A stretch of DNA of 64,000 bases from Schmidtea polychroa (lineage: Eukaryota). The notes beneath the pieces are model-generated. The model did not search any database. It worked only from the letters and a program-made list of their open reading frames with translations, and was not told the DNA's origin. Positions 2,836 through 52,070 of this stretch are shown in pieces (the stretch's first letter is position 1; every line of letters starts with the position of its first letter). The translations under genes were made by a program, and so were the position numbers. Where the stretch lies: NCBI GenBank assembly GCA_044892525.1, contig CM097885.1:20462001-20526000 (forward strand), written 5' to 3'.

Positions 2836-4496
2836 TGTCTGTAACATAAACATTAAGACCCATACATAACCACTGTGACTTATAAATAGACGTCACAACA
2901 AAACATACAGAAATTTCTTGTTTAAAATCAATAATACTTAACTACTAAATTTATTATAATTAATATAAATACTTCTAACATACCCAAATTTTATTTAATT
3001 TATGGATATACTTTTTAATTAAGTAAATTAAGGAAAAATTTACTAAAGTTAAGTGTTAACGTTAAAAAATTCGTACCCGAACCGAGAATCTCCAAAAATG
3101 GTTTTGTTTAAAATTATTATTTTAATCATTCGGCATTTATTTACCACTGGTTGGTAATTTGGATTTTATAAGTTAAAATTTTTAGGTAAAAGTGAATATC
3201 TCCACTAAATGCGGTTACGCCAGGCGAAGGGTACTAGTGGCGAGCTCAGTCTCTTGCTCACTTACTCTTCCACTGGTTGTATTCGTTATAAGTGGGAAAA
3301 TCATCATTTATCCGTTTGTGGTAATCTATTTCTTGATCTTATATACCTAATTTAGGGACAATTTGATGATTATTTTTCCAGCTGGAGCTATCGAGGTTCA
3401 GTTTCAGCAGTTCGTCCTATGACTCTTGATCAGGAAATCATGGCTTGTATTCATAAAGATTGTGTGAGTTGATTGATTGAAAGGGAAAAATTAATATTGA
3501 ATCTTTATTTAGCTGCAATTGACGACTTGTAGCCTTGCACGAACATTGATTAACTTGTTTGTATTCTGTGCGCTTTCAATATTCTATTGTCGTTTCAATA
3601 TGAGATTTTTATTTGTCTAAATTTATTGCAATTGTCAAATTTTATTAGTCAGTTATTATTGTAAACAAATTTATTCGAACAAAGTAGTAATATTTAATGA
3701 ATTTATAAATGTGAGCAACCGTTAAACATGATAAATATACTTAAGTCGATGAATGAAAATACTATTACCATAATATCTGCATGTAATTTGCTTTTATATG
3801 AAGAAACCCAAATATTTGGTTGGTTTGTAATGTGGTTCTAATTTAGAAATTTTTCATCTAAGTCATTTGGTATTAATGAACATGAAGTAGTTATGGTTAA
3901 TATGCTTTTGCCTACTTTAATTGAATTTATAAAGAAGTTGTATGTTTGTTTTTCGTTCGGGATTTAAGGGTCAGATTGCATAGGTGCTCATACGTCCTCA
4001 CCCATATCCCCCGGTGACTTGAATAATGGTAATATTTTCCTATGGGGGGGTGTTGCTAAAAATAGTCTTCAGAATTCTGATCCCTCTGATTGGCTCGGAG
4101 GGTCGTTTCTAAATTTAATTTCTTGGGGAAATCCTAAAATCAATATCAGATTGGGATATTAACTTTGACAAGTAATAATAATTGTTAATAATAATAATAT
4201 ATAATCAGTATAGTATTTATACATTTACTAATATATTCCACCATGACTAAGTGTATATGTATATATATATATATATATATTTACAATTAAATTATATATA
4301 TTAAGAACAATATTAGTAAAAATAATAGTCAAGTCATATATAACTGATCATTAATAGTAATAATAGCAACAATAGAGATAACCATAATAACCATGGTAAC
4401 AATAATAATAATAATGTTAATGATAATAATAAGGGTCGAACTGATGATAATAATGATAATAAGATTAACATTAATAATAATAATAATAATATTACC

Positions 4497-4579
<83 letters not shown>

Positions 4580-6549
4580 AAATAATAATATAAATAATAT
4601 TAGTGATAATAAGAATAATGGTAATAATGATGGTAATATTAGCAGTAACAGCAATAATATTAGGGTTAATATAATTTTACATGGTACAATTCGAAGCTTA
4701 TATTTCTCATTTTAAAGATTTCTATTCTATGATTTAGAAAGTTACTTTTGGTAATTTATAAATTTCCGTTTCTAATTTAAATTTTATATTTTTCAATTTA
4801 CACATTTATACGTTATAATTTCTAATTGTATGTATTATAGTGTATAACTTAATAATTTATGATTTTATACTTTATATTTTATAATTTTATATTTTATAAT
4901 TTATAATTTTATGTTTTACAATTCAGGGGTTTAGATTTTATAATTTGTAGTTATATATTTCGTAGTTCATAATTTTATATTTAATAATTCACGATTTTAG
5001 GTTTTATACTTTAGGATTTTATATTTCATAATTTATGATTTTATAATTTATACTTTATGAATTTCTAGTCAGCTTTACATGACTTTTTATAAGTTACTTT
5101 TGTTGGATCATCATAGTTTTCTAAAATGTTTTCAAGTTTGTCGGTAGCTATTCCCAGACTCTATTCCCGAAGTTCCACGTTTATGTATAATTAATAAAGA
5201 AACATTTCCGATACCCAAAATCTATAGCTCCTAATCGGGATTTTCCATTAATGACTTACATCAATATAATTAGCTCTAAGATCTGACAACTATTTATACA
5301 ATTATAGCTAAATATTTATACATTAATGAATGTTTAAAGTGAGAATTGGATTTAAAATCCTTACATTTACTTTGAATCAGCATAGCTAGATTAAGTTGTA
5401 CCGGCACGTATGCCGAATATCTTTCTTATCTCTATTACTTTATCAAAATTTTCTATTACAAAATTTAGTTCGGCATATGTCCAAGTATAATTGAAATTAC
5501 TGTGATGAATCAACTAGCTACATTAATGTGAGTGCAGAATTGTGTAATTTTAGGTACGAGCTCTGCTCAAATTAGAACCTTAGTGTAGAGTTATTATTCA
5601 GGATTTTAAGTGTTGATTTTAAATATGTGTTGCATAGAAGGTCGGGAAGAATATTGCTTCCATGGCCCCACTGTGACCACTTCCACAAACCTTAGTGTTG
5701 AGTGTTGAGTCAACCATTTACGATCGACCTTACATAAATACAAAGAGTCAGGCGAAGGGTTTCCTCGACCTAACTCCATGGCAGGACCATGAAGTAGTTC
5801 GACCTCCGGCTGACCCGAACAAAAAGGGTTTTATAGATAATAATAATGCATGTGTGAATGAGAAATAGAATTTAAGAATTATATGCAGGACCGATCAGAG
5901 ACGTACTCGGACGCCGCTGATCCGTCGAAAATTACTAGAACATAAAATCTTAATAATATTCTTAATGAACAAAAGGTTGCTATTAATAATATTACGTAGC
6001 ATAAAATTACATCAAATCAAAAGGCTTACTAATAATTTTCCAGAAAATTCTTCAGCAAAATATTGGCATAAAGATTGATTGTGACTGAAACGTGTCAGTA
6101 TATATACCTATTTAGTAGATAGATAGGGCACCGCTAGATCAGGACTCCGCTGGATCACATACCCCCCCACTAAGGGAAATTTTTAAAATTCTTTTCAAGG
6201 TCAAAATTTTTAATGTAAAGTTCATTTTTTTTTTAAAATTTGAAATTCGAGAGTTCCTGACAAGAGATATTATTATTTGAAAATAAAGGTCTTTGAAACA
6301 CAGGGATTATTATATATATATAGTCTGAATTTATCCGACAAGATATTCTGTCCTCCTATGGGTATTGCTCACATTCAACATGTCGCAAGGGTATTATTAA
6401 ACAAATCAACATTGTATTTTTATTATTTTATTATTATTATTATTATTATTTTTTTTTTATTTTTTTTTTCTAATATTTTAATTTTTTTTTTATTTATTAT
6501 TTATTTATATTTTTATTTTTATTATTTATTTATATTTTTATTTTTATTA

Positions 6550-6616
<67 letters not shown>

Positions 6617-6677
6617 TTTAATATTATTATTATTTTTATTATTATTATTATTTTTATTATTATTATTATTTTATTAA

Positions 6678-6758
<81 letters not shown>

Positions 6759-6781
6759 TATTTATATTTTTATTTTTATTA

Positions 6782-6856
<75 letters not shown>

Positions 6857-6857
6857 T

Positions 6858-6924
<67 letters not shown>

Positions 6925-7095
6925 GATTTACAAAATTATTATTATTTTTCATAATAAATTAAGACATTAAAAGATATATTGAATCACAGATCAATTCGAA
7001 AACAATACGTCATCTATATCAATATCATTGGCATCATTGGCTTCATTGTCATCATCATTGAAATCTGGACTCATTCCGCTAAAAAGTGGACGAAT

Positions 7096-8625
7096 TTATG
7101 AAATTACTTGATCAACATCTGGAACATCGACTCCTAAATAATGTCCATATGCGAGACTGGTATTAGGACCCACCCAAAGGCGCTTGTCATCGTTGTTCGA
7201 CAAGGCTATTTTATTATTTTTAAAAGTAAAGAGCTGGTGGTTTCTTGTACCTATTCTAGTTTGTGGTACCGAAAATACTACGCTGTTGTTGTAGCAGTCT
7301 AAATATGACTGGTGTCTAATATCAGTATTACCAAGCTGAACTCCCTTTGCTTTTAAATGATCTTTATCCCCTAACAAACTATAACACTTAGGTCTTAAGA
7401 AAACCCATTCCTTATACCCTACACCTTTACTTTCATCTTTAAACTTCCCTATTACCGAATCCAGGCTCTTAGAATATAAAGGATGAGCAGGATCGTAATT
7501 TGACGTGTCTAGAAGGCTGTCTCTTATCATTGCCGGCAAAAGAGTGTCAAGCTTACAGGGCTTTATCTCTAAGAAAAAGGAGTCAGTGTCACCGGCAACG
7601 ATATTTATATCACAATTAAATTCAGACCTGTACTTGGCCAATTCCACATATTGTAGTTGATACATTCTTAGTTTAGACAAATCTAACATTGTTTGACAAA
7701 TATAGCTAGGCCTGTCTAAACATATAGAGTCCTTATTCAGATGAGCCACAATCAGATCATCAGCAATTTTGATAGATTTTCTGAAAGTTGGCTTTGATGC
7801 ATATACAATCATCTTTTCAGCTGAATTGCATAGCCTCAAATTCATCCTTTTCTTTAAGTTCTCAACGGATTTCCCATATAAGCTGTTGTTATAAAGCTTA
7901 AACAAATCTCTATATAACTCACTGGTGGATTGTGGTCTTAATGTTGTGTTTTTATCAATGTACGATTTAAAAATGGGTGCTTGCGTGAATTTAACTGCTC
8001 TATAAATTTTAACCACCGTCACACCGAGTGAAAGATAAAGTTTAAGAAGTCTCCAATGAAGAACATAGTTCTTCTTTGGCCAATGCGTGAGCAACAGCTT
8101 CTCAACTTTGGAGTTCGGTGGACACATCTTTTCCGCAGCAATAGGAAAGTCATTTAAAAAATCATGCAAACATTCCGGAATTTCGATATCAACTTCCATA
8201 GTATACCCATATGGAAGGTTATCAATATCATCATTCACACATTCAAGTAAAACATCATTCAAATCATCATACACCCATACAAAGTCAGCATAAGGCAGAT
8301 TTTGGCTTAAGGCCCAACCATACAAATTATTAATATCTATGTACAAGAGTTCAGTGTCTTCAGAACTAGCAACATAATGTTTGTTAACAAATGTTAACCC
8401 ACCCCGTATCCCTCCTTCATAGAAATTAAACATTTCCATGTCCTGCAAAAGTTCTATAGGTTCCGTTAATGTGATAAGCGCTGAGGCCCATGACATACCG
8501 GGAATACCATAGAAATTTAGAGGTTCAAGACCATTGTAAGCAATGGCCTTCGCACGGAATTGTTGAAAATAGTCTGCAAGGAGAAATACATCTAATTTAA
8601 GGTAAGTCAACATGTAATCTAACAT
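7096..8625 (-). CDS. Protein-primed family B DNA polymerase, C-terminal polymerase part (left copy)
   Basis: YLKLDV (ExoIII), YIDINNLYG (Pol A), KLYNNSLYGK (Pol B), AGDTDSFF (Pol C), GKFKDE, LRPKCY, KAKGV. Confidence 0.92.
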   Translation of the reverse strand: MLDYMLTYLKLDVFLLADYFQQFRAKAIAYNGLEPLNFYGIPGMSWASALITLTEPIELLQDMEMFNFYEGGIRGGLTFVNKHYVASSEDTELLYIDINNLYGWALSQNLPYADFVWVYDDLNDVLLECVNDDIDNLPYGYTMEVDIEIPECLHDFLNDFPIAAEKMCPPNSKVEKLLLTHWPKKNYVLHWRLLKLYLSLGVTVVKIYRAVKFTQAPIFKSYIDKNTTLRPQSTSELYRDLFKLYNNSLYGKSVENLKKRMNLRLCNSAEKMIVYASKPTFRKSIKIADDLIVAHLNKDSICLDRPSYICQTMLDLSKLRMYQLQYVELAKYRSEFNCDINIVAGDTDSFFLEIKPCKLDTLLPAMIRDSLLDTSNYDPAHPLYSKSLDSVIGKFKDESKGVGYKEWVFLRPKCYSLLGDKDHLKAKGVQLGNTDIRHQSYLDCYNNSVVFSVPQTRIGTRNHQLFTFKNNKIALSNNDDKRLWVGPNTSLAYGHYLGVDVPDVDQVIS

Positions 8626-8637
8626 GTTATTGCAATT

Positions 8638-10950
8638 TTACTGAGTCCAAATAACTTGGGCTAATGCATACTCATCATTAGACACAGAATCCCAGATCGG
8701 AGGTAGTTCAAGAGTTGATTCCAGAACCTCAAGAGATGTAGCGAAGTCATAAGGAAAGATACCTTTGGCTCGAACAATTGCGCCATCAAAAACAGAAGAA
8801 GTTAAAGGCAGATCGGAAAGAGTCTTAACCGCTTTTGCTAAAGATGAATTAACAAACTGCATGCTGTCAATAAAACGAACAGGTAATTTGTTAATATACG
8901 CGATGAGAGAGATGAATTTCTCGGTAGTGGTCGGAATAATATTTAACTCCCAAGAAGGAAAATTATTCAAGCCATACTTCAAAATATGATGGAGATCATA
9001 CCCCCTCAAATTATGGAACACAACCGGTAACTGTCTCTGAATTCGCCGAGAAACATTACATTTCCTACAAGCAGCACCAAGATACTTACCTGAGAAGTGG
9101 CAATGGTCCCTAACTCTATCTCTAATGAATTTTTTACACAGATAACAGGTTATGGAATCTCTATATGCCCGCTGTTGAACGAAAGACAAAGTTTGCATGG
9201 GCTTTTTCCCATTAATTTCGTAATATGGCAGGACAATTGTGGCAGCAATTTCCTCCACCTTACGCAAGAAAGACAACACACAATCATCACCAACAAACTC
9301 ATAATAAAATTTTGTGTTATTATAATTATTAATTAATAACATGCCTGCTGTTATTGGCAAGTGCTTTTGATGGTGTATTATATCCTCGGGTAAAATTGCC
9401 TCAAAATCGGCATATATCACGAATGACGGGGTGATTGTCTTCGCATAATTTTGAAAAATTAAATTTTTATCTTTAGGGAGGGTGTATAGAGGTGTTCCTA
9501 TCTGGTTTTTTATGCATAAGGCGACATGAATATCAAATGCATTTTTATGTCTAAAACCATTGAGACAATGGGGACGCCAGTTCACTCTAATCCAAAGGTT
9601 GCAGGAGCTACTGGGATGTGAGTTCATTAATTTTTGTAAGTTAAAAACTGCGGTATAATGGAAATTATCACCGTCTTCCAATAAAAGTAAGTATATGGGT
9701 TCACCACCTATAACCTTAGATCGGTGAATAATATCTAATTGAGGATGATGTGGAATATAATTATCGTCAATTACATTTTCATAAGGCTTACCTGGGGTCT
9801 TTTTATAAATTAAAACATTTATTGATAAATTTAAATCCTTGTTTTTCCTTTCAAATTTGGGGATATCACATAATTTCATGGGGCAATCATCTATGGGGTC
9901 AAAATTTAACTCGTCAAGATAATTTTCATAGGAACTAACACGATTTCTATTTATATGTACTACATTGCGTTTTAACAGTGCTAAAATACTATAGATAAAG
10001 CACATATCGTCGGTGTTTTTGACGTTTACTATTGCTTTTTTAGAATTTAAAGCTGATGGGGTGGGGATATAACTATGTCCAACTAGCATATTCATATGTG
10101 TATTTTTAGTTAATATAAAATCTATTTCTTTGATTTTAACCACCCGCCATCCGCTTCCCAAATATGTGAACTTTTCAATTTTATTATTTAATCTGGTGAT
10201 TCCATTAATCAAAAAATTTTCTGAAAAAACTTCTGCGCTATTAGAGAAAAAATTATCTCTAATTTCCCCATCTTTTTCGAATTGGATTAAAACGGTGAAT
10301 TGTATTTTAACTGTGCCCATACCTTTGATTTCGGCAATTAATTTATTTATAATTTTATTTGTAAGGGAAATTTGCACCAAGTTATCCTTTTCCATATTAA
10401 AGCGTAAATTTTTTCTCGCCCCCTTAAAATCTATCTCAATTTCAGGTTCATCGTCAATATCGATCGAACTCTTATTATTTACTGAACCACCTATTTGAAT
10501 ATTATTTAAATCACTTATTTGATCTATTTTAGTAATTTTAGAGGGAACACCAGACCAAAAACTAACAGCAGGCTGTTTATTATTTAGAATATTATTTATT
10601 TTAGTATTTAGATTAGTATTATTTACATTATTATTTACATGTTTTGTATTATTATTTATAGGTTTTGTATTTATGTGTTTTGTGGTATTATGTGTTGATT
10701 GTTGTATTTTAATAAACAATATCTTTTTATTTAAAGAGAACCGATTTAAATGTGATTTGTGAATATTATAAAACTCTATATATTTAATGCTTTGGGAAGT
10801 CTCGCATATTGGACATATAAAGTAGTTGATACCATAGAATCTATGACCGTAGTATTTTTTCATATTTTTATGGCATATATTTGTATGATCATTTGATGAC
10901 ATGCAGTAGCGTGGGTATAATTTACCTGATAAATTATAAATATATATCAA
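8638..10950 (-). CDS. Protein-primed family B DNA polymerase, N-terminal/exonuclease part (left copy); same frame as 7096..8625, separated by one TAA
   Basis: VIYADFEA (ExoI); CYLC...DHCHFSGKYLGAACRKCN (EndoVII-like Zn insert typical of Polinton pPolB); FHNLRGYD (ExoII); FIDS; KGIFPY. The track start is TTG, so the true start is uncertain. Confidence 0.88.
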   Translation of the reverse strand: MIYIYNLSGKLYPRYCMSSNDHTNICHKNMKKYYGHRFYGINYFICPICETSQSIKYIEFYNIHKSHLNRFSLNKKILFIKIQQSTHNTTKHINTKPINNNTKHVNNNVNNTNLNTKINNILNNKQPAVSFWSGVPSKITKIDQISDLNNIQIGGSVNNKSSIDIDDEPEIEIDFKGARKNLRFNMEKDNLVQISLTNKIINKLIAEIKGMGTVKIQFTVLIQFEKDGEIRDNFFSNSAEVFSENFLINGITRLNNKIEKFTYLGSGWRVVKIKEIDFILTKNTHMNMLVGHSYIPTPSALNSKKAIVNVKNTDDMCFIYSILALLKRNVVHINRNRVSSYENYLDELNFDPIDDCPMKLCDIPKFERKNKDLNLSINVLIYKKTPGKPYENVIDDNYIPHHPQLDIIHRSKVIGGEPIYLLLLEDGDNFHYTAVFNLQKLMNSHPSSSCNLWIRVNWRPHCLNGFRHKNAFDIHVALCIKNQIGTPLYTLPKDKNLIFQNYAKTITPSFVIYADFEAILPEDIIHHQKHLPITAGMLLINNYNNTKFYYEFVGDDCVLSFLRKVEEIAATIVLPYYEINGKKPMQTLSFVQQRAYRDSITCYLCKKFIRDRVRDHCHFSGKYLGAACRKCNVSRRIQRQLPVVFHNLRGYDLHHILKYGLNNFPSWELNIIPTTTEKFISLIAYINKLPVRFIDSMQFVNSSLAKAVKTLSDLPLTSSVFDGAIVRAKGIFPYDFATSLEVLESTLELPPIWDSVSNDEYALAQVIWTQ

Positions 10951-11099
10951 ATATATTAATAGATTTAAATATTAATTGTTAATTGCATTTATATTTAATG
11001 ACTTTATTAACAATTCTTAACCCGTAATTCTTAAGTGTAACCATGTATAGGCAGAATTCAATTCTCTAGAATATGGCGCAATTACCATTTCAGTTTGGT

Positions 11100-11702
11100 G
11101 CTTTGTGTGTAATGCACACATGTTTTTACAATAAATTTGTATTTTTTCGCGCGGTTAACGTTATTTTCTTGGATTTTTATTCATATAATATATAGATAAA
11201 ATTTAATTTTCTATAATTATAATTGGTTAAAAACTATGTATCTTGTTTTGTGTGTAATACACACATGGTTTTACAATAAATTTGTATTTTTCATACATTT
11301 AACGTAATTTTCATAGGCTTTTATACATATAATATATAGATAAAATTTAATTTTCTATAATTATAATTGGTTAAAAACTATGTATCTTGTTTTGTGTGTA
11401 ATACACACATGTTTTTACAATAAATTTGTAGTTTTCATACATTTAACGTAATTTTCTTGAAATTTTATTCATATAATATATAGATAAAATTTAATTTTCT
11501 ATAATTATAATTGGTTAAAAACTATGTATCTTGTTTTGTGTGTAATACACACATGGTTTTACAATAAATTTGTATTTTTCATACATTTAACGTAATTTTC
11601 ATAGGCTTTTATACATATAATATATAGATAAAATTTAATTTTCTATAAATATAATTGGTTAAAAACTATGTATCTTGTTTTGTGTATGATACACACATGT
11701 TT
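11100..11702. repeat. 144-bp tandem array (~4.2 copies), each with a TGTGTGTA-A-TACACACA palindrome or close variant
   Basis: ACTATGTATCTTG recurs at 11233, 11377, 11521 and 11665, an exact 144-bp period. Confidence 0.92.
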
Positions 11703-11754
11703 TCCTGATTTTTTTTTTAATATTAATATCATTTTTAATATTTTTTTTTTAAAT

Positions 11755-11788
<34 letters not shown>

Positions 11789-12052
11789 TTAATAATAAAA
11801 ATATTAATAATAATAATAATAATAATAATAAAATAATAATAATAATAATAATAATAATATAAATAATAATAATATAAATAATAATAATAAAAATAATAAA
11901 AATAATAATGATAAAAATAATATTAAAAATATTAATAATAATAATAAAATAATAATAATAATATAAATAATAAAAATAAAAATAATAATAATAATATTAA
12001 TAAAAATAATAAAAATAATTATAATAATAATAATATAAATAATAAAAATAAA

Positions 12053-12087
<35 letters not shown>

Positions 12088-12162
12088 TAATAATAACAGT
12101 AATAATAATAATTATAATAATAATAAAAAATAAAAATAATAAAAAAAAAATAAATAATAATG

Positions 12163-12193
<31 letters not shown>

Positions 12194-12582
12194 TAATATT
12201 AAAAATATTAATAATAATAAAATAATAATAATAATATAAAAAATAAAAATAATAAAAATAATAATAATAATAGTAATAGTAATAATAATTTGTAAATAAA
12301 ATAAGATTTTGAAGAAAACAATCATGAAAATATTGAAAATAATCATGAAATTAATGCAAATTATGAAAATTTTAAATAAATCAAATTTAGTGTCAAAATG
12401 TGTTTTTAAAATATATCTAAGTTTTAAAATACCGCAACGTAATGTATTTTTATTCTATCCCTTCTTTGATTTTGATTGGACCGGAAAATATTCATTTTCT
12501 TTATAAGCAGTTGAAATTTTCAAAATCGTCACAATTATTTTTAAATTTTACAAATTTTCGACTAAAAAATTTTTGATTAAAA

Positions 12583-13077
12583 ATGGACATTGAATTAGAT
12601 AATATTTTACGCGCCATGTTGGCTGGAGAAAACGGTAAATTATTTTATTTTTATTATTATTATTATTTATTATTTTAGAGAATTTATGGTATGAAGTCAC
12701 CGAGGCCGACAACTATAATCAAGATCAGCCAATTATTATTAGTGAGGATGAAGAAGATATTTTATTAAGTAAATTTATTTTTAAAATTTAATTGAAAATA
12801 AAATTATTTAGTTGATCAGCCTATTAATGACGGTGAAAATGTTATTGAAGACAATACCCGAGATATTATCATGGAATCAATGGGTAAATTTATTTTATTT
12901 AATTAATGAATTACATAAACTTAAGGTGATGATACCTCAAATGTTGGATATGCCCCAAATATTAATGTAGTTTTTGATGACTATGCCCACATGTTTATTG
13001 AGGAGGAAATTAATCATGACTTTGTTTTTTATGGGGATGAATCTGAAGATGATTCCGATATAGAATCAAAATGTTAG
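12583..13077 (+). CDS. Four-exon gene for a very acidic 121-aa protein (exons 12583-12634, 12679-12768, 12812-12883, 12926-13077)
   Basis: Three GTAAAT...AG introns of 44, 43 and 42 nt, all phase 1. Splicing gives an uninterrupted 366-nt frame MDIELDNILRAMLAGENENLWYEVTEAD...GDESEDDSDIESKC*. Confidence 0.78.
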
Positions 13078-13142
13078 TTATATTTTATTAATATTTTTAA
13101 AATTAATTTAAAATTGGTTTTGATAATTAATTTGTTTAATAA

Positions 13143-13620
13143 CCACGTATAAATTATGAAAATGTTTCTGGAAATAATTATGAAAATGCTGAAAATTATG
13201 AAAATGTTCCTGAAATTATAATGAAAATGTTGAAAATTATGAAAAATATGAAAGTTTTTCTGAAAATAATTATGAAAATGTTGAAAATATTGAAAATTAT
13301 GATTACCACGTATAAATTATGAAAATGTCTCTGAAAATAATTATGAAAAATCAGAAATATATGAAGATGTTCCTGAAATTATAATGAAAATGTTGAAAAT
13401 TATGAAAAATATGAAATTTTTTTTGTGAAAATAATTATGAAAATATTGAAAATAATGAAATGTTCCAGAAACTTATGAAAATGTTTTTGAAAATAATTAT
13501 GAAAAATCTGAAAATCATGAAAATGTCTCTGAAAATAATTATGAAAAATCTGAAAATTATGACAAATATGAATATGTTCCTGAAAATGATGTTGAAATTA
13601 ATAAGTTGTTATGAAAATAA
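13143..13620 (+). repeat. Degenerate AATTATGAAAATG(TT) short-unit array
   Basis: Many AATTATGAAAA variants; CCACGTATAAATTATGAAAATGT recurs at 13143 and 13306. Confidence 0.8.
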
Positions 13621-13729
13621 TAATTGAATAGAAATAATACTTTGAAAATATTAATTGTCAAACATAGTTTGCATTGAGCACGCAACTACTTTCTCTAATA
13701 ATAATATTAAAAAAAAATAGTAATATTAG

Positions 13730-13769
<40 letters not shown>

Positions 13770-13959
13770 TATAATAATATTTATGATATCTCCCATATTT
13801 TATACCTCTGATAATGATAATATTACAATAAATTATATATGTATTCCGATTATTATTCCGTTTTATAATTATTATGCGATAAATACGGCTTAAGAATTGT
13901 TAATAAAGTCATTAAATATAAATGCAATTAACAATTAATATTTAAATCTATTAATATAT

Positions 13960-16272
13960 TTGATATATATTTATAATTTATCAGGTAAATTATACCCACG
14001 CTACTGCATGTCATCAAATGATCATACAAATATATGCCATAAAAATATGAAAAAATACTACGGTCATAGATTCTATGGTATCAACTACTTTATATGTCCA
14101 ATATGCGAGACTTCCCAAAGCATTAAATATATAGAGTTTTATAATATTCACAAATCACATTTAAATCGGTTCTCTTTAAATAAAAAGATATTGTTTATTA
14201 AAATACAACAATCAACACATAATACCACAAAACACATAAATACAAAACCTATAAATAATAATACAAAACATGTAAATAATAATGTAAATAATACTAATCT
14301 AAATACTAAAATAAATAATATTCTAAATAATAAACAGCCTGCTGTTAGTTTTTGGTCTGGTGTTCCCTCTAAAATTACTAAAATAGATCAAATAAGTGAT
14401 TTAAATAATATTCAAATAGGTGGTTCAGTAAATAATAAGAGTTCGATCGATATTGACGATGAACCTGAAATTGAGATAGATTTTAAGGGGGCGAGAAAAA
14501 ATTTACGCTTTAATATGGAAAAGGATAACTTGGTGCAAATTTCCCTTACAAATAAAATTATAAATAAATTAATTGCCGAAATCAAAGGTATGGGCACAGT
14601 TAAAATACAATTCACCGTTTTAATCCAATTCGAAAAAGATGGGGAAATTAGAGATAATTTTTTCTCTAATAGCGCAGAAGTTTTTTCAGAAAATTTTTTG
14701 ATTAATGGAATCACCAGATTAAATAATAAAATTGAAAAGTTCACATATTTGGGAAGCGGATGGCGGGTGGTTAAAATCAAAGAAATAGATTTTATATTAA
14801 CTAAAAATACACATATGAATATGCTAGTTGGACATAGTTATATCCCCACCCCATCAGCTTTAAATTCTAAAAAAGCAATAGTAAACGTCAAAAACACCGA
14901 CGATATGTGCTTTATCTATAGTATTTTAGCACTGTTAAAACGCAATGTAGTACATATAAATAGAAATCGTGTTAGTTCCTATGAAAATTATCTTGACGAG
15001 TTAAATTTTGACCCCATAGATGATTGCCCCATGAAATTATGTGATATCCCCAAATTTGAAAGGAAAAACAAGGATTTAAATTTATCAATAAATGTTTTAA
15101 TTTATAAAAAGACCCCAGGTAAGCCTTATGAAAATGTAATTGACGATAATTATATTCCACATCATCCTCAATTAGATATTATTCACCGATCTAAGGTTAT
15201 AGGTGGTGAACCCATATACTTACTTTTATTGGAAGACGGTGATAATTTCCATTATACCGCAGTTTTTAACTTACAAAAATTAATGAACTCACATCCCAGT
15301 AGCTCCTGCAACCTTTGGATTAGAGTGAACTGGCGTCCCCATTGTCTCAATGGTTTTAGACATAAAAATGCATTTGATATTCATGTCGCCTTATGCATAA
15401 AAAACCAGATAGGAACACCTCTATACACCCTCCCTAAAGATAAAAATTTAATTTTTCAAAATTATGCGAAGACAATCACCCCGTCATTCGTGATATATGC
15501 CGATTTTGAGGCAATTTTACCCGAGGATATAATACACCATCAAAAGCACTTGCCAATAACAGCAGGCATGTTATTAATTAATAATTATAATAACACAAAA
15601 TTTTATTATGAGTTTGTTGGTGATGATTGTGTGTTGTCTTTCTTGCGTAAGGTGGAGGAAATTGCTGCCACAATTGTCCTGCCATATTACGAAATTAATG
15701 GGAAAAAGCCCATGCAAACTTTGTCTTTCGTTCAACAGCGGGCATATAGAGATTCCATAACCTGTTATCTGTGTAAAAAATTCATTAGAGATAGAGTTAG
15801 GGACCATTGCCACTTCTCAGGTAAGTATCTTGGTGCTGCTTGTAGGAAATGTAATGTTTCTCGGCGAATTCAGAGACAGTTACCGGTTGTGTTCCATAAT
15901 TTGAGGGGGTATGATCTCCATCATATTTTGAAGTATGGCTTGAATAATTTTCCTTCTTGGGAGTTAAATATTATTCCGACCACTACCGAGAAATTCATCT
16001 CTCTCATCGCGTATATTAACAAATTACCTGTTCGTTTTATTGACAGCATGCAGTTTGTTAATTCATCTTTAGCAAAAGCGGTTAAGACTCTTTCCGATCT
16101 GCCTTTAACTTCTTCTGTTTTTGATGGCGCAATTGTTCGAGCCAAAGGTATCTTTCCTTATGACTTCGCTACATCTCTTGAGGTTCTGGAATCAACTCTT
16201 GAACTACCTCCGATCTGGGATTCTGTGTCTAATGATGAGTATGCATTAGCCCAAGTTATTTGGACTCAGTAA
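13960..16272 (+). CDS. Protein-primed family B DNA polymerase, N-terminal/exonuclease part (right copy)
   Basis: Translation identical to 8638..10950; ends at an in-frame TAA at 16270-16272. Confidence 0.88.
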   Translation: MIYIYNLSGKLYPRYCMSSNDHTNICHKNMKKYYGHRFYGINYFICPICETSQSIKYIEFYNIHKSHLNRFSLNKKILFIKIQQSTHNTTKHINTKPINNNTKHVNNNVNNTNLNTKINNILNNKQPAVSFWSGVPSKITKIDQISDLNNIQIGGSVNNKSSIDIDDEPEIEIDFKGARKNLRFNMEKDNLVQISLTNKIINKLIAEIKGMGTVKIQFTVLIQFEKDGEIRDNFFSNSAEVFSENFLINGITRLNNKIEKFTYLGSGWRVVKIKEIDFILTKNTHMNMLVGHSYIPTPSALNSKKAIVNVKNTDDMCFIYSILALLKRNVVHINRNRVSSYENYLDELNFDPIDDCPMKLCDIPKFERKNKDLNLSINVLIYKKTPGKPYENVIDDNYIPHHPQLDIIHRSKVIGGEPIYLLLLEDGDNFHYTAVFNLQKLMNSHPSSSCNLWIRVNWRPHCLNGFRHKNAFDIHVALCIKNQIGTPLYTLPKDKNLIFQNYAKTITPSFVIYADFEAILPEDIIHHQKHLPITAGMLLINNYNNTKFYYEFVGDDCVLSFLRKVEEIAATIVLPYYEINGKKPMQTLSFVQQRAYRDSITCYLCKKFIRDRVRDHCHFSGKYLGAACRKCNVSRRIQRQLPVVFHNLRGYDLHHILKYGLNNFPSWELNIIPTTTEKFISLIAYINKLPVRFIDSMQFVNSSLAKAVKTLSDLPLTSSVFDGAIVRAKGIFPYDFATSLEVLESTLELPPIWDSVSNDEYALAQVIWTQ

Positions 16273-16284
16273 AATTGCAATAAC

Positions 16285-17814
16285 ATGTTAGATTACATGT
16301 TGACTTACCTTAAATTAGATGTATTTCTCCTTGCAGACTATTTTCAACAATTCCGTGCGAAGGCCATTGCTTACAATGGTCTTGAACCTCTAAATTTCTA
16401 TGGTATTCCCGGTATGTCATGGGCCTCAGCGCTTATCACATTAACGGAACCTATAGAACTTTTGCAGGACATGGAAATGTTTAATTTCTATGAAGGAGGG
16501 ATACGGGGTGGGTTAACATTTGTTAACAAACATTATGTTGCTAGTTCTGAAGACACTGAACTCTTGTACATAGATATTAATAATTTGTATGGTTGGGCCT
16601 TAAGCCAAAATCTGCCTTATGCTGACTTTGTATGGGTGTATGATGATTTGAATGATGTTTTACTTGAATGTGTGAATGATGATATTGATAACCTTCCATA
16701 TGGGTATACTATGGAAGTTGATATCGAAATTCCGGAATGTTTGCATGATTTTTTAAATGACTTTCCTATTGCTGCGGAAAAGATGTGTCCACCGAACTCC
16801 AAAGTTGAGAAGCTGTTGCTCACGCATTGGCCAAAGAAGAACTATGTTCTTCATTGGAGACTTCTTAAACTTTATCTTTCACTCGGTGTGACGGTGGTTA
16901 AAATTTATAGAGCAGTTAAATTCACGCAAGCACCCATTTTTAAATCGTACATTGATAAAAACACAACATTAAGACCACAATCCACCAGTGAGTTATATAG
17001 AGATTTGTTTAAGCTTTATAACAACAGCTTATATGGGAAATCCGTTGAGAACTTAAAGAAAAGGATGAATTTGAGGCTATGCAATTCAGCTGAAAAGATG
17101 ATTGTATATGCATCAAAGCCAACTTTCAGAAAATCTATCAAAATTGCTGATGATCTGATTGTGGCTCATCTGAATAAGGACTCTATATGTTTAGACAGGC
17201 CTAGCTATATTTGTCAAACAATGTTAGATTTGTCTAAACTAAGAATGTATCAACTACAATATGTGGAATTGGCCAAGTACAGGTCTGAATTTAATTGTGA
17301 TATAAATATCGTTGCCGGTGACACTGACTCCTTTTTCTTAGAGATAAAGCCCTGTAAGCTTGACACTCTTTTGCCGGCAATGATAAGAGACAGCCTTCTA
17401 GACACGTCAAATTACGATCCTGCTCATCCTTTATATTCTAAGAGCCTGGATTCGGTAATAGGGAAGTTTAAAGATGAAAGTAAAGGTGTAGGGTATAAGG
17501 AATGGGTTTTCTTAAGACCTAAGTGTTATAGTTTGTTAGGGGATAAAGATCATTTAAAAGCAAAGGGAGTTCAGCTTGGTAATACTGATATTAGACACCA
17601 GTCATATTTAGACTGCTACAACAACAGCGTAGTATTTTCGGTACCACAAACTAGAATAGGTACAAGAAACCACCAGCTCTTTATTTTTAAAAATAATAAA
17701 ATAGCCTTGTCGAACAACGATGACAAGCGCCTTTGGGTGGGTCCTAATACCAGTCTCGCATATGGACATTATTTAGGAGTCAATGTTCCAGATGTTGATC
17801 AAGTAATTTCATAA
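16285..17814 (+). CDS. Protein-primed family B DNA polymerase, C-terminal polymerase part (right copy)
   Basis: Same motifs as the left copy; two amino-acid differences near the C-terminus (QLFIFK vs QLFTFK, GVNVP vs GVDVP). Confidence 0.92.
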   Translation: MLDYMLTYLKLDVFLLADYFQQFRAKAIAYNGLEPLNFYGIPGMSWASALITLTEPIELLQDMEMFNFYEGGIRGGLTFVNKHYVASSEDTELLYIDINNLYGWALSQNLPYADFVWVYDDLNDVLLECVNDDIDNLPYGYTMEVDIEIPECLHDFLNDFPIAAEKMCPPNSKVEKLLLTHWPKKNYVLHWRLLKLYLSLGVTVVKIYRAVKFTQAPIFKSYIDKNTTLRPQSTSELYRDLFKLYNNSLYGKSVENLKKRMNLRLCNSAEKMIVYASKPTFRKSIKIADDLIVAHLNKDSICLDRPSYICQTMLDLSKLRMYQLQYVELAKYRSEFNCDINIVAGDTDSFFLEIKPCKLDTLLPAMIRDSLLDTSNYDPAHPLYSKSLDSVIGKFKDESKGVGYKEWVFLRPKCYSLLGDKDHLKAKGVQLGNTDIRHQSYLDCYNNSVVFSVPQTRIGTRNHQLFIFKNNKIALSNNDDKRLWVGPNTSLAYGHYLGVNVPDVDQVIS

Positions 17815-18008
17815 ATTCGTCCACTTTTTAGCGGAATGAGTCCAGATTTCAATGATGATGACAATGAAGCCAATGATGCCAATGATATTGATATAGATGA
17901 CGTATTGTTATCGAATTGATCTGTGATTCAATATATCTTTTAATGTCTTAATTTATTATGAAAACTAATAATAATTTTGTAAATCTTAATAATAATAATA
18001 ATAATGAA

Positions 18009-18078
<70 letters not shown>

Positions 18079-18151
18079 TAATAAAAATAAAAATATAAAT
18101 AAATAATAAATAAATAAATTAAAATATTAGAAAAAAAAATAATAATAATAA

Positions 18152-18188
<37 letters not shown>

Positions 18189-18195
18189 TTAATAA

Positions 18196-18232
<37 letters not shown>

Positions 18233-18328
18233 TAATAAAAATAAAAATATAAATAAATAATAAAAATAAAAATATAAATAAATAATAAATAAAAAAAAAA
18301 TTAAAATATTAGAAAAAAAAAATAAAAA

Positions 18329-18362
<34 letters not shown>

Positions 18363-19613
18363 TAATAAAAATACAATGTTGATTTGTTTAATAATACCCT
18401 TGCGACATGTTGAATGTGACCAGTACCCTTGTGAGCAATACCCATAGGATTACAGAATATCTTGTCGGATACATTCAGACTATATATATATATATATATA
18501 TATAATAATCCCTGTGTTTCAAAGACCTTTATTTTCAAATAATAATATCTCTTGTCAGGAACTCTCGAATTTCAAATTTTAAAAAAAAATGAACTTTACA
18601 TTAAAAATTTTGACCTTGAAAAGAATTTTAAAAATTTCCCCTAGGGGGGTGAGTGGGGGTATGTGATCCAGCGGAGTCCTGATCTAGCGGTGCCCTATCT
18701 ATCTACTCCATTTAGTACACGTGTATGTATTGATGCATTAAAACAAACTCGAATTCTTTTTATTCCAGAATTTTCTATTTTGCGATTTTGATATTTTTAA
18801 TGGCAATTTTTGTGCCATAATTTTTGTTTTTATTTTTATATTTTTATTTTTTAATGATTTTTCGTTAAATTGACGTCCATGATGGATTTGTAACGGTTCC
18901 AGAACATTCTATTTTACTTTTAATTAATTTTTATTCTAACTGGTGTTTTTATGAATTTCTTTTTAAGATTTTTTATTTTTAATACTAATTTATTTATTTT
19001 CCCTAACTTTTGTTGTTCTAGATGACTTTTGTGATGGTCATCGCCATTTTTATAGAATGTTCTGGGTTTTTCTGGCATGTTTTACTGTTTTTATCGTTTT
19101 TTAAGTTACTCGAGTTTGTTTTTTGTAACTCTGTGTTTATTTGGTTATTTCCGAGTTCTATTTTGCATAATTTTATTTAATTTCTGTGTTTATTATTTGT
19201 TGTTTTCTCCTTTAATTACTATTGTTTATTTGGTGTAGTTTTGATATATTTAGTTATACTTCTTGCTTTTTGCATGCTGTGTACTTACACATTTCAGTCA
19301 CAATTAGAAATTTTGGGTCTAGAAGTCAGTTCTAGCCCAACACAAGTTGCACTATTTTTAATAGCAAACTGCACTATATTTTTTCCAAACATTACTTTAT
19401 TATTTAATGAGCACTATATTATTTTTTTTACTAAAATAATTCAAATCAAAACTTTTTATATTCAAAAATTTACTTTAGCACCTAGATAATTATTGATCTG
19501 AACTAAATAATTTTGAACCTGAACTAAAATTTTTTTGACTGAAACTCAGATAGCAAGAGCATCATGTCATGTTAATTTTTGCATAAGTCAGTGTTTTCGC
19601 GGCTTTTCTTTAA

Positions 19614-40895: not shown

Positions 40896-41170
40896 TTATA
40901 ATTTTTGGCTTTTTATTATTATTATTATTATTATTATTTAAAACAACAAAAATGAAAATATTTTCGACTATAAGATAGTCCTTGTCAATCTCCTGGAATT
41001 TAGCAATGTTCTTCCCGAAAATACCTTTCAATCTTTCTTTTATTCCTTTCTCTTAATTCTCATTGGTTCTAAATATTATTCGTTATTTTTTTATTTATTA
41101 AAAATTTTAAAAATTTTATTGCAAATTAAAATTAAAATGAAATAAAATAAATACCATAAAAAATTTCAAA

Positions 41171-41608
41171 ATGACAAAAAATAAAAATTTGTTCACAATG
41201 AAAAACTGTCATACACCGAATGATATGTGCTTTAGAAAAAACATATTCTATTGCGTCACGTGCAATGTATGCAATGAAATCTACATTGGAATTACACTCA
41301 GGACCTTGCACCAAAGAGTTGAAGAACACCTGGATCCTGATGGAACATCCTCGTTGGGCAGAAATCTCCGGCAGTGTCAGCCAACAGAGGAAAGAAAAAT
41401 TATTTCAATCGAAAATTTCATGGAAACTAATGGAAACATCCGAAAGAAAAATGTCAGAATCAAAGAAGCAATTCTCATCATAAGCAGACAGCTAACGATC
41501 TACACTAAAGAAGAAATCAATGAAAATATTTCAAAATATTTTAAAATAAAGCCTCCAATAACGATTTATATACGCTATTTAAATATTTCAATAAATGTGT
41601 CAATTTGA
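41171..41608 (+). CDS. GIY-YIG endonuclease, Penelope-like
   Basis: KNIFYCVTCNVCNEIYIGITLRTLHQRVEEH...IKEAILI...TKEE. Confidence 0.8.
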   Translation: MTKNKNLFTMKNCHTPNDMCFRKNIFYCVTCNVCNEIYIGITLRTLHQRVEEHLDPDGTSSLGRNLRQCQPTEERKIISIENFMETNGNIRKKNVRIKEAILIISRQLTIYTKEEINENISKYFKIKPPITIYIRYLNISINVSI

Positions 41609-42037
41609 TTTTTAAATCCTATCTTTTGAAAGTATATTTCCTAAAATTTTCTATATTATTTTAATTATTACTTTTTAATTTATTTTATTTTTTTATTAAT
41701 TTCTTTATATATTGTCAGTTATTCTCAAGGTCAATGACAACATGTCAAATTCACGATTTCATTGATTTCTTCTTTAGTGTTGATCTTTAGCTGTCTGTTT
41801 ATGATGAGTACGAGGAAGTTTTATGATGAAGAAATTTTTAAATTTTAAATTTTAAAAATTAAATTTTAGATTAATTTAAAAAAAAATAAGAAGATATTTT
41901 AATTAAAAATATCTTCGTAGAAAATTTGTTTAAATAAGAAAGTTTTAAGAAGATATAATTTGATACTGATATTTACTGAAATAAAATTTATGGAAGCAAA
42001 AATTGATTTTAATGTTTTACAGGATGAACATCCTAAT

Positions 42038-43084
42038 ATGGTGGCAGCGGTAAGCACTGATGCAATCACCGAAAGATTGCTACCAAAGGTATTCTGCCAA
42101 GGTGACGACTTGTAAAAGTTCATTAAAAGATGCGAAATTTATTTCGACGCCAAGGGAATCACGCAGAAGAAAGATCAGGAAAGATTAACATCTTGCATGA
42201 TTGATGAGGATCTCCTGGAAGTGTATGCCAAAACACTGAAAAAAGCCGAAGGATTTCAGGCTAGGTTGCGATTGGCATTCGATCGCGAAAGAGATGTTTT
42301 AAAGGATCTACAAAACTTGTTGAATTACAAGCGGAAGGGTGAAGAAATAGAAACGTATTTTAAAAAGGTGGAGGACCTTGTTGATAGGTTGTTTGAAAAT
42401 AAAGAATTTACCAAAGAGAAATTAACAGCAAGGATGTTAATAGTATGTGCGGAGAATAAAGAAGTTGAGAAAGAAGTGATACTACGGAAGATAAAAAGCA
42501 CAGAAGAAATAAAGGAAACACTAATTCTGATGGACAAAGTAGACAAGCAAAGAGATCAGATAAACAGTATGAAAAGTTACGCCAGAGTGGTCTATCAGGA
42601 ACCACAGAGAAGAGTACAATACAAGAAGAAAGAAAAGAGAGAAGAAAGTATCCGAAGAGAAATGCCAGAATGCTGGTTATGCCACAAAATAGGACACACG
42701 AAAATTGATTGTCCAATAAAAGGTAAAATAGAATGCTGGACATGTCATAGAAGCGGACATATAAGTAGAAACTGTCCAGATAAAAAAAAGCTCCAAGATG
42801 TTTTGGGTGTGGGAAAGAAGGTCATATAAGAAGATTGTGTCAGGAAATACGTTGTGAAAGATGTAGCAGAAATGGTCATATATCCGAGGAGTGTTATACA
42901 AAGATGAGGTACGGGAGAGCGATGGAGAGACAAAGATTCACGGGAAACAGATACAGTCGGATAAATGGTATCGAGGAAGAAGAAGAAAGGGAATCGTGTG
43001 TAGAGACAAATGAAGATAATTTTCGGAAGACGTACCCAAACAACAGGGCTCCCCAGTAGAGGAGTTGGTTGGAGCCATATTCTA
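42038..43084 (+). pseudogene. gag: gag of the outer element (CCHC knuckles; stops and frameshifts)
   Basis: CWLCHKIGHTKIDC, CWTCHRSGHISRNC, CERCSRNGHISEEC; in-frame TAA at 42113-42115. Confidence 0.9.
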
Positions 43085-44821
43085 ACAGAAAATTTGATGG
43101 GATATCCTCAAGGGGCAGAAAAGTGGGAGAATGTTGGAATGGTAAGCGAGAAAGTATACAGGTTCCTAAAGAGAGAAATTTTTGAAGAGGAAGTGGAAAG
43201 AATTGGAACCATTGAAACGCAGCAGGTTGTTGAAATTTTGTATACCAAATTGCAAGGAAGGACTAGTATAACAGTAAGGATGAATGGGGAAAATTTCGAC
43301 TGTTTATTAGACACTGGTGCAAGAATCAATGTAATGAGTGTGAACTGTTTTAACAAGCTACGAGGACAACAATTGACGAAAAGTGACGATAAGTTACGAT
43401 GCGCAAACGAGAGTACGATCGAGACAATAGGAAAAACGAAGGTGCAAGTAACCATTGGAAATGTTTCGAAGGAAGTTATATTCATTGTGGCAGAGAAAGT
43501 GACACCAAATGTGATTGGAGGAAGCGAATTACAAGAAACATTTGGATTTAGACTGTTAAAAATTAAAGATATCGAGGCTAGTGAAAAAGACAAGAACTAT
43601 ATTTGTAACATTGAAGCAAAATTTAGCAGAAAAATAAAGGATGAAGAACGATTGATACGAGCGTTGGAACAGTTAAAGATCAATGAAGATAGCAAATTAA
43701 AGGAAATTATAACAAACAGTGGAAACGTGTTTATGGCAGATAAATGGGATGTGGGTCGCACACATTTGGTAAAACACAAGATAGTTACAAGAGATGAGTC
43801 GATAAACATAAAACCATATCGCCAACCACTAAATTTGGAATCAAAGATTGAAGAAGCATTACAAAATTTGTAAGAAAATGGAATTATACGGAAATGTAAC
43901 TCTCCGTGGAATACACCGCTAATATGTGTATGGAAAAAAGAGAAAAAGGATATTAGACTATGCTTGGTAACAGAGAGGCAGGCATTTCCAATGCCAAACA
44001 TAGACGAGATGTTGGATTTGTTAGGAGGATCCGTCTTTTTCAGCTCAATCGATCTAAGTAATGCATATTACCAATTGGAACTAGAAGAAGAATCACAGGA
44101 GAAAATAGCTTTCTCAACGAAGAACGGACAATATTGTTTCAACAGAATGCTGTTTGGAATTGCAGCAGCACCAGGTACGTTCCAAGAAATGATGACAAAA
44201 GTATTAGGCAAATAAAGGGAGCAATGGTGTATTTGGACGACATCTTGATTTATTCAAGCAGTAACGAGAAACACTATACAATACTCGCAGAAGTGTTAAA
44301 GTCGATTGAGGAAGCAGGCCTAAGGATTAATCCAGAAAAATGCCAAATAATAAAGGAAGAAATCAGATTCTTAGGACACATAATCAGCAAAGAAGGAGTA
44401 CAGACAGATCCATCTAAAATTCAGGCCATACAGAACTTTGGGAAGCCTAATTGCATAAAGAAACTCCGAAGTTTTTTAGGTATTTGCAATTATTATAGAA
44501 GATTCATCAGTGATTATGCAAAGAAGGCAAGGAAGTTAAAACAATTATGTAGCGGACCAAGTAACAAAAAATTAGAATGGAGTGAAGGAACGAATAGCGT
44601 GTTTGAGGGATTGAAATTAGCACTCACGACGGCGCCAATCTTATGTTTTCCGGATCTGAAAAAGGAGTTCATTTTAGATACCAACGCTAGTTTCGATACC
44701 ATTGGAGCAGTACTTTCACAAAGAGATAAAGATGGAAAGGAAAGAGTAATTGCGTATGGATCACACTCGATGACGAGCCACGAGAAAGGATATTGCATTA
44801 CAAGAAAGGAACTATTGGCGG
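43035..44821 (+). pseudogene. pol: pol 5' part of the outer element (protease, RT, RNase H start)
   Basis: LLDTGA, YLDD, LRSFLGICNYYR, RKELLA; broken by stops, frameshifts and the nested insertion. Confidence 0.92.
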
Positions 44822-45157
44822 TGTTAGCCGCAACAACGTCGAATTCATTCTCAATCTCCATAATTAATAAATTAAACAAATAAAATTACTAAATTTATTT
44901 TATTCACAAAACTGCGCTTTTTTGTAATATTCAAACAATCTGTTCGAGGCTTTTTTTATTATTTTAATTTTGATACTGATTTCAATGCTGGTTTAATTTA
45001 TTTTAATATTTAATATATTTTAATTTATTTTTATATTTTAAACTTACTTTAATTTATTAATTTAAATATTTATATAAAAATTTATGTAATCTGATATATA
45101 CAATTTAAATGTTTATTAGCAATATCCAGTTTTAACTTAAACGTGAATTCTACCCTT

Positions 45158-46909: not shown

Positions 46910-46924
46910 GAAACTCCTTAAATT

Positions 46925-48475: not shown

Positions 48476-48540
48476 ATTATTTAATTTATAAAAATTATTT
48501 ACATTATTATAACCAGCATTTTCATCAAAATCAAAATTAC

Positions 48541-49638: not shown

Positions 49639-49924
49639 ATAAAATTACTAAATTTATTTTATTCACAAAACTGCGCTATTTTGTAATATTCAAACAATCT
49701 GTTCGAGGCTTTTTTTATTATTTTAATTTTGATACGAATTTCAATGCTGGTTTAATTTATTTTAATATTTAATATATTTTAGTTTATTTTTATATTTTAA
49801 ACTTACTTTAATTTATTAATTTAAATATTTATATAAAAATTTATGTAATCTGATATATACAATTTAAATGTTTATTAGCAATATCCAGTTTTAACTTAAA
49901 CGTGAATTCTACCCTTTCAGGCGG

Positions 49925-51233: not shown

Positions 51234-51466
51234 GGAAGTTTTATGATGAAGAAATTTTTAAATTGAAAATTTTAAAAATTAAATTTTAGATTAATTTTTA
51301 AAAAAAAAATAAGAAGATATTTTAATTAAAAATATCTTCGTAGAAAATTTGTTTAAATAAGAAAGTTTTAAGAAGATATAATTTGATACTGATATTTACT
51401 GAAATAAAATTTATGGAAGCAAAAATTGATTTTAATGTTTTACAGGATGAACATCCTAATAATGAG

Positions 51467-51769
51467 AATTGCTTCTTTGATTCTGACATTTTTCTTTCGG
51501 ATGTTTCCATTAGTTTCCATGAAATATTCGATTGAAATATTTTTTCTTTCCTCTGTTGGCTGACACTGCCTGAGATTTCTGCCCAACGAGGAGGTTCCAT
51601 CAGGATCCAGGTGTTCTTCAACTCTTTGGTGCAAGGTCCTGAGTGTAATTCCAATGTAGATTTCATTGCATACATTGCACGTGACGCAATAGAATATGTT
51701 TTTTCTAAAGCACATATAATTCGGTGTATGACAGTTTTTCATTTTGCACAAATTTTTATTTTTTGTCAT
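51467..51769 (-). pseudogene. Second GIY-YIG endonuclease copy, split by the outer Gypsy
   Basis: Near-identical to 41171..41480; its continuation is 41808-41756. Confidence 0.8.
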
Positions 51770-52070
51770 TTTGAAATTTTTTATGGTATTTATTTTATTT
51801 CATTTTAATTTTAATTTGCAATAAAATTTTTAAAATTTTTAATAAATAAATAAATAACGAATAATATTTAGAACCAATGAGAATTAAGAGAAAGGAATAA
51901 AAGAAAGATTGAAAGGTATTTTCGGGAAGAACATTGCTAAATTCCAGGAGATTGACAAGGACTATCTTATAGTCGAAAATATTTTCATTAAATACATTAT
52001 TTGCAGCAAAAGGCTTAAATTATCATTTTATTGTTTTAAATAATAAATGCTGCTTCCAAGAAATCATCAC

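Follow-up and report, generated by a model that had tools for sequence, protein, structure and literature searches.

Results

A palindromic element with a polymerase gene in each arm

We analysed a 64,000-nucleotide stretch of the Schmidtea polychroa genome (contig CM097885.1, positions 20,462,001 to 20,526,000; hereafter the window), in which an original prediction, made from the sequence alone, had noticed a foldback element related to the Polinton (Maverick) transposons, with a protein-primed DNA polymerase gene (pPolB) in each of its inverted arms. The element occupies positions 6114-18707 (12.6 kb) and is probably one decayed member of a class of palindromic, polymerase-only Polinton/Maverick derivatives found across the genome. 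The host genome (781 Mb) is AT-rich and has spliceosomal introns and TTAGGG arrays.

The element begins with AGTAG and ends with CTACT, exactly at the two predicted positions, and its first and last 47 bases are identical. The left terminal region (6114-6415, + strand, beginning AGTAGATAGATAGGG) and the right one (18380-18707, - strand, ending CCCTATCTATCTACT) differ by 5 substitutions in 294 aligned bases, plus indels. CTATTT precedes the element (6108-6113) and CCATTT follows it (18708-18713), and the host repeat in which it lies is 98.1% (left part, 4317-6107) and 97.5% (right part, 18714-19346) identical to an empty paralogue (L270). Among 11 paralogues of this host repeat, nine have their flanks adjacent around a single CTATTT, one has a one-base variant and one has other sequence there. 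Because the empty paralogues carry CTATTT once, the target-site duplication (TSD) is genuine and reflects a single insertion event, after which one base of the right copy was changed. The 6-bp TSD with one mismatch and the joint integration of both ends, each of which had been proposed, are thus borne out by the empty sites.

Self-comparison resolved a left arm (6114-11029, - strand), which contains the terminus, an AAT tract and the pPolB main exon and is truncated within the last intron, and a right arm (13881-18707, + strand) that is partly mirrored on the left. The arms are inverted and share one ungapped block of 4237 nt at 99% identity. The pPolB main exon lies at 7096-10925 (- strand) on the left and at 13985-17814 (+ strand) on the right, and reads outward in both arms (Pfam DNA_pol_B_2, PF03175, E 6.5e-16); the polymerase has 2025 relatives, the best at 64%. 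Both copies are interrupted by an identical in-frame stop (8638-8640 and 16270-16272), which was seen in 0 of 45 other arms scored. An alternative genetic code was rejected, since there is a sense codon at that position in the 45 other arms.

Four leader exons were predicted in the core between the arms (12583-12634, 12679-12768, 12812-12883 and 12926-13072, + strand), all in phase 1 with GT-AG introns, which would encode an acidic N-terminus and join the main exon at 13985 in phase 1. Their splice dinucleotides are present in most copies (third acceptor in 43 of 43, fourth donor in 44 of 46; two AT-rich probes were noisy), and a full-length element has the same layout of leader and main exons. 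The left arm ends inside the last intron, and there are neither leader exons nor a start codon upstream of its main exon. Besides the predicted leader exons, the core contains a 144-bp tandem repeat and an AAT tract. It is what remains of the inner part of a longer arm, and its predicted leader exons are absent from the left arm.

These results change the earlier picture of the element in several respects. Inverted arms of about 4.9 kb with outward-reading pPolB were found as described, but neither arm holds the whole pPolB that had been claimed, since the stop lies in both and the predicted start exons are missing on the left. The arm/core junctions, placed at 11026 and 13884, were close to those we found (about 11021-11031 and 13881). 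The core had been called unique, whereas a search with 12440-13100 yielded 992 candidates, and the 40 that were scored, which include the window's own copy, all match at 94-100% identity. Also overlooked were the stop common to both arms, the splicing of the leader in the core and the cassette at the centre of intact copies. The reported lack of capsid, ATPase and integrase genes was upheld, as tblastn with the proteins of a full-length element of the same genome (element D) found no major capsid protein (MCP), integrase, ATPase or protease in the window element. For a retroviral-like integrase, there was no tblastn match in the element with two integrases from the same genome and no such open reading frame (ORF), and a search for a minor capsid gene there, made at the DNA level only, gave no match.

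A cassette with Polinton ends at the centre of intact palindromes

In less-deleted palindromes of this genome the order is the 144-bp repeat, AAAAACAGTAG, a cassette of 0.2-1.8 kb that begins with AGTAG and ends with CTACT like a Polinton, and the exact mirror CTACTGTTTTT, which begins precisely at the last base of the cassette. The flanks of the cassette are inverted rather than directly repeated, and the cassette was therefore rejected as a nested insertion. The junction motif, AAAAACAGTAG followed directly by AGTAG, has 908 exact matches in the genome (control, 0), with 35 head-to-head and 0 back-to-back pairs among the first 100 matches listed. A one-arm element (L059) ends at the cassette with a perfect TSD, and a full-length element (L045-046) has one outer-type end and one cassette-type end, again with a perfect TSD; therefore, the cassette ends are real, integrable ends. 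Three capsid-bearing elements do not have the junction motif.

The 144-bp tandem repeat module, which flanks the cassette in intact palindromes of three polymerase lineages, lies at 11031-11723 (+ strand) in the window. A central deletion scar at 11014-11035, with a local 7-bp repeat (TTCTTAA) and a TTAAG microhomology, marks the loss of the left inner arm and the cassette; we take such a junction to be typical of alternative end joining. The junction is private to the window, being common to 0 of 40 other scored candidates. A seemingly shared junction in L120-121, the sole full-length 82% match, proved to be a different small rearrangement. The fold-back point does not lie at this junction, which is a later deletion scar.

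Some cassettes (for example L016:7549-8260 and L112:9313 to L113:888; L018-type ends apart) contain dense arrays of TGACTCA/TGAGTCA, presumably AP-1-like, and of TGACCTTG between two divergent polymerase promoters. A 3.1-kb reciprocal palindrome (L124:7787 to L125:899) has cassettes at both outer ends and the leader region in the middle, with a TSD of 5/6.

Palindromes occur genome-wide in several polymerase lineages

We searched the genome with the terminus and examined 39 of the 40 best matches, which represent 31 loci and were classified from module maps. pPolB was found in both inverted arms at 13 of the 31 loci, and capsid with integrase at three; the rest were one-arm, interrupted or fragmentary. 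An 18-mer from the family's pPolB has 655 exact matches in the genome, and the first 100 listed include 19 pairs that lie back to back within 25 kb; an MCP 18-mer has 1575 matches, with 2 inverted pairs among those listed. The TSDs of 26 window-family palindromes matched at 6/6 bases in 15 (2 of them in AAT tracts) and at 5/6 in 4; in 7, none was in register.

Two sister lineages, F2 and F3, have polymerases with 56% and 66% protein identity, respectively, to the window family, and the same centre joins their arms. Paired centres served to fetch 5 F2 copies and paired ends another 10; each of the 15 is a palindrome of 12.5-14.0 kb, and their TSDs are perfect and differ. The first five lie at unrelated sites and differ by 0-5 substitutions per 5.9-kb arm, and four of them have the same 1.54-kb centre. 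Six further F2-containing loci included two with a perfect TSD, three without and one that was single-armed, and two F3 copies had perfect TSDs. Of 30 F2 arms, 29 have an open last exon of the polymerase, in which the six motifs sought are all present, and the ratio of nonsynonymous to synonymous substitution (dN/dS) between F2 sub-lineages is 0.16-0.22. By this measure the F2 polymerase is under purifying selection.

A FastTree phylogeny of 81 of 110 polymerase rows, from which near-identical F2 rows were dropped, placed the arms of one element mostly as sisters, with the capsid-bearing elements D and L045 nested in the window clade and L067 in F3. The alternative of a one-off locus is contradicted by the double-pPolB palindromes, which occur genome-wide and in at least three polymerase lineages. 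Thus, the architecture has been transferred between polymerase lineages and does not mark one separate family.

Several loci were of more complex composition. L153-L154 is a hybrid in which an F3 polymerase arm and an F2 arm surround one cassette, with no TSD. A 15-kb palindrome with 7.2-kb arms (99.2%), cassette-type ends, a perfect TSD and no Polinton gene found (L026-L027; G000:C2:164675600-164690700) sits inside a full-length Polinton, which is itself inside a double-pPolB palindrome. At G000:C1:55832000-55873000 (L090-L093, L014-L015) the mirror of another element, B, continues 2.7 kb past its ends into the flank, with further inverted blocks, a chromosomal rearrangement around a palindrome. 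Same-strand F2 matches at C1:0.38-1.34 Mb were considered as telomere-healing arrays and rejected. They are tandemly amplified F2 polymerase fragments (G000:C1:380000-1340000) with 1.4-4.6-kb periods, fixed breakpoints and no element ends in the eight stretches read, and they inflate the count of 923 matches.

The arms of one element resemble each other

The window arms differ by 9 substitutions in about 600 outer bases versus 0 in 3794 inner bases (Fisher p 1.5e-8), and few of the outer-base substitutions recur in other copies. In 23 palindromes, two chimeric ones having been left out, arm divergence was 1.5% at the ends and 0.3-0.7% inside; an exception is L102-104, whose arms are 3% apart. 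A break at the same codon in both arms was found in 10 of the 18 palindromes with both arms read, each element having its own position. For F2 we compared 24 arms from 12 elements, 3 without the motif having been dropped. Among the variable columns, 19, a 12-site tract among them, were found in the two arms of a single element and nowhere else, 10 occurred in one arm and 25 were common among elements. From such patterns we infer that arm conversion would operate both during replication and after insertion.

Full-length relatives as candidate helpers

Element D is 16.3 kb long, with a 424-bp terminal inverted repeat (TIR), a perfect TSD, the same ends as the window element and 90% polymerase identity. 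It encodes an integrase, an A32-type ATPase and a C5 protease; Pfam gave no capsid match for its MCP, whose double jelly-roll (DJR)-like label comes from an Atlas lead with a score of 0.97 and recognition below threshold, PF21738 being present on 65% of one cluster. Head-to-head with the ATPase, D also encodes a short TBP-like protein (L019:3294-3731, + strand; PF00352, E 1.7e-14). The polymerase DNA of the window family is 90-97% identical to that of full-length elements of the same genome, and window-type ends are common to the integrase-bearing D and L045-046. The full-length parent that the original prediction had proposed to look for thus has counterparts in resident relatives with the same ends and capsid and integrase genes. 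The shared ends and the TSD length suggest that a helper Polinton integrase likely inserts the palindromes.

Other features of the window and genome

Elsewhere in the window, positions 40951-51989 form an element that has inverted ends of 534 bp (98%) and a fragment of the GIY-YIG type, and that contains two gypsy-like long terminal repeat (LTR) retroelements nested in opposite orientation (direct repeats at 41809-42038/51229-51461 and 44822-45160/49581-49919). An exon-sized ORF at 55895-56398 (- strand) matches ANF_receptor weakly (E 2e-5, narrowly below the cut-off) and likely belongs to a host gene. L188, at the end of C4, contains 1247 TTAGGG units in its final 10 kb, and by eye the ends of C2 and C3 resemble what is presumably large-subunit ribosomal DNA.

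Discussion

Any account of how the palindromes originate has to accommodate what was seen directly: their architecture and abundance, their separate TSDs, the single-arm forms that end at the cassette, the full-length relatives with the same or mixed ends, and the mirrored private variants. Replicons with a pPolB displace a single strand whose ends anneal; to our knowledge, Polinton replication has been modelled rather than shown. We propose that the palindromes likely arise when a displaced strand anneals at the two Polinton ends in the centre and its extension yields a mirror copy. A one-arm molecule (end, pPolB, leader, 144-bp repeat, cassette) would replicate by protein-primed strand displacement, and its free 3' cassette end would pair with a closer partner, the inner end of the cassette 0.2-1.8 kb off, extension giving an arm-loop-arm molecule. 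The long stem would keep the arms alike through later rounds, and a helper integrase would insert the unit, producing the 6-bp TSD. Once the unit is in the chromosome, conversion between its arms would continue and the centre could be deleted by end joining, which would give the window's shared stop and one-sided core. The first of two options in the original prediction, a foldback derivative that integrated once and in trans, agrees with the full-length relatives with the same ends, the empty site and the other double-pPolB palindromes with TSDs of their own.

A number of observations weigh against this reading. Neither an extrachromosomal molecule nor a terminal protein or transcript was seen. 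In six window-family centres the perfect repeat that runs into the cassette measures 0-39 bp, short and of varying length, and in most F2 cassettes one end differs from the other; priming within one molecule is therefore not established over annealing between two. Clean TSDs are lacking in 7 of the 26 window-family palindromes, and picking F2 copies by paired centres or paired ends favours complete elements. The sampled tree (81 segments) contained no capsid-bearing member of the F2 clade, and an F2 helper is therefore assumed. The 12 window-private variants that lie in both arms speak for conversion in the chromosome, but their make-up, 11 nonsynonymous changes and the stop with none synonymous, is inflated by the privacy filter. 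Contigs of four runs cover both sides of the window junction, and no listed piece bridges it.

The main rival, which we regard as unlikely, is that inverted dimers form between two molecules, whose strands, or one-arm molecules themselves, anneal or recombine at the cassette. Yeast inverted repeats with a 1-kb spacer gave mostly intermolecular inverted dimers (PMC6103520), and spacers in the present elements span 0.03-1.5 kb. Chimeras whose arms are unlike (L035-036 and L039-040, 10-17% arm divergence) and the F3/F2 hybrid L153-154 point the same way, although the hybrid lacks a TSD and may be a later chromosomal crossover. Dimers would need one-arm copying or later correction to account for the private variants and the 12-site recombinant tract found in both arms of most copies. 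It is improbable that the palindromes form after insertion, a one-polymerase element growing its terminal repeat inward by host break repair with the TSD kept. Greater divergence at the ends than inside (1.5% versus 0.3-0.7% in the 23 palindromes), centre breakpoints that vary in older copies, the private window junction and the 2.7-kb extension of the element B mirror into the flank would all agree with such growth. However, the young F2 copies, with 0-5 substitutions per 5.9-kb arm, are all palindromes already, at unrelated sites and with the same 1.54-kb centre in four of the first five, and one-arm forms bear a cassette-type end where palindromes have an outer-type end on both sides. In-place expansion thus fits the old copies and not the young F2 burst.

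Still less probable is an autonomous, linear-plasmid-like replicon family unrelated to the resident Polintons, the second option of the original prediction. The F2 last exon that is open in 29 of 30 arms with its six motifs, the dN/dS of 0.16-0.22 and the lack of a capsid-bearing F2 member in the sample are consistent with it, but the precise 6-bp TSDs despite the lack of an integrase and the ends common to full-length elements are not. In the FastTree phylogeny, moreover, two of the three palindrome clades contain nested capsid-bearing elements (D and L045 inside the window polymerase clade, L067 inside F3). We give the least credence, very little indeed, to an assembly artefact, in which the mirror would come from foldback reads or the arms would have been homogenised by polishing. 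The missing bridge across the window junction among the listed contig pieces of the four runs would suit an artefact, as would base 10831, which is the same in both window arms and in no contig of those runs. Yet one host repeat runs on from the left flank into the right, with an exact 6-bp duplication, the arms differ at their outer ends and not beside the inner unique anchor, unlike the pattern expected of mis-mapping, and there are hundreds of centres with differing TSDs and insertions confined to one arm.

As a tentative extension, the palindromes may be a natural class of polymerase-only satellites of Polintons that make their own working pPolB from both arms, with helpers giving only the integrase and perhaps capsids; the portable cassette of inward Polinton ends would turn any polymerase arm with which it recombines into a self-correcting palindrome whose second arm is regenerated each cycle. 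A virus-like transposon would then spawn satellites in which the polymerase is under selection and the virion genes are dropped, a route toward plasmid-like elements. The hundreds of natural palindromic derivatives, with their defined central repeat, one-arm forms and mirrored variants, can be read as a record of how strands are displaced and single strands anneal, and point to molecules to seek. For the animal genome they amount to hundreds of 10-17-kb palindromes that convert, delete and duplicate flanking DNA. They would be overlooked by pipelines in which an integrase plus pPolB is demanded (PMC8097293, PMC10748475).

Polintons/Mavericks are described in the same reports (PMC10748475, PMC8097293) as 13-25 kb long, with 100-1500-bp TIRs and one pPolB, plus integrase, ATPase, protease and major and minor capsid proteins. 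By that description the window element resembles them in its AGTAG-type ends, 6-bp TSD, pPolB (PF03175, with an HNH/EndoVII-like insert) and length near 13 kb, and is unlike them in that the repeat here, of 4.9-7 kb, holds a whole polymerase unit, other genes are lacking and the gene is predicted to be spliced. Of the features of an autonomous Polinton it has a pPolB, broken by the stop, and AG/AGT-type ends with a TSD in the 5-8-bp range; it has no integrase, ATPase, protease or MCP, and has 4.9-kb arms in place of a 100-1500-bp TIR. It appears to fit a non-autonomous Polinton derivative, with the ends of resident integrase-bearing elements and relatives inserted with TSDs of their own (19 of 26 in the window family, 15 of 15 in F2). 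The polymerase lineage separate from Polintons that would characterise a pPolB linear plasmid was not found in the FastTree phylogeny. Such a plasmid would also be a free, autonomous replicon capped by a terminal protein; the copies seen here are all integrated, and the window copy has no intact polymerase.

The palindromes are also like the snapback defective genomes of adeno-associated virus, in which, according to one report (PMC8235507), one viral end is mirrored, the replication-gene or capsid side is kept and a helper is needed; unlike them, that virus is a single-stranded DNA virus with rolling-hairpin replication, and its snapback forms have no TSD integration, no inherited repeat family and no breakpoints set by a cassette. 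In the window element, too, one genome end is mirrored and the other genes are lost. Adenovirus genomes produced by recombination of internal inverted repeats and the long palindromes of Streptomyces linear plasmids are reportedly terminal-protein replicons with one end duplicated around a central loop. Those cases are said to be engineered or rescue events, unlike the natural, integrase-mobilised, high-copy class here. Chromosomal palindromes of the Y-chromosome type show arm-to-arm gene conversion, near-identical arms, mirrored mutations and lower identity at the outer edges; here, in contrast, the palindromes are 10-17-kb mobile elements in which conversion mirrors disabling mutations.

A double-pPolB palindromic Polinton was not found in the available portions of the literature searched (including PMC10748475, PMC8097293, PMC6431247 and PMC4028283), and non-autonomous elements of this kind may be listed in Repbase. 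Nothing was found when metagenome and viral contigs were scanned with single proteins. An alignment scan of other genomes gave 80 loci, 17 of them of at least 8 kb and none with a long inverted arm, which is no evidence either way, as short-read assemblies collapse palindromes. To these known systems, the present analysis adds a form that carries the polymerase, along with the portable cassette, one-arm forms and mirrored decay.

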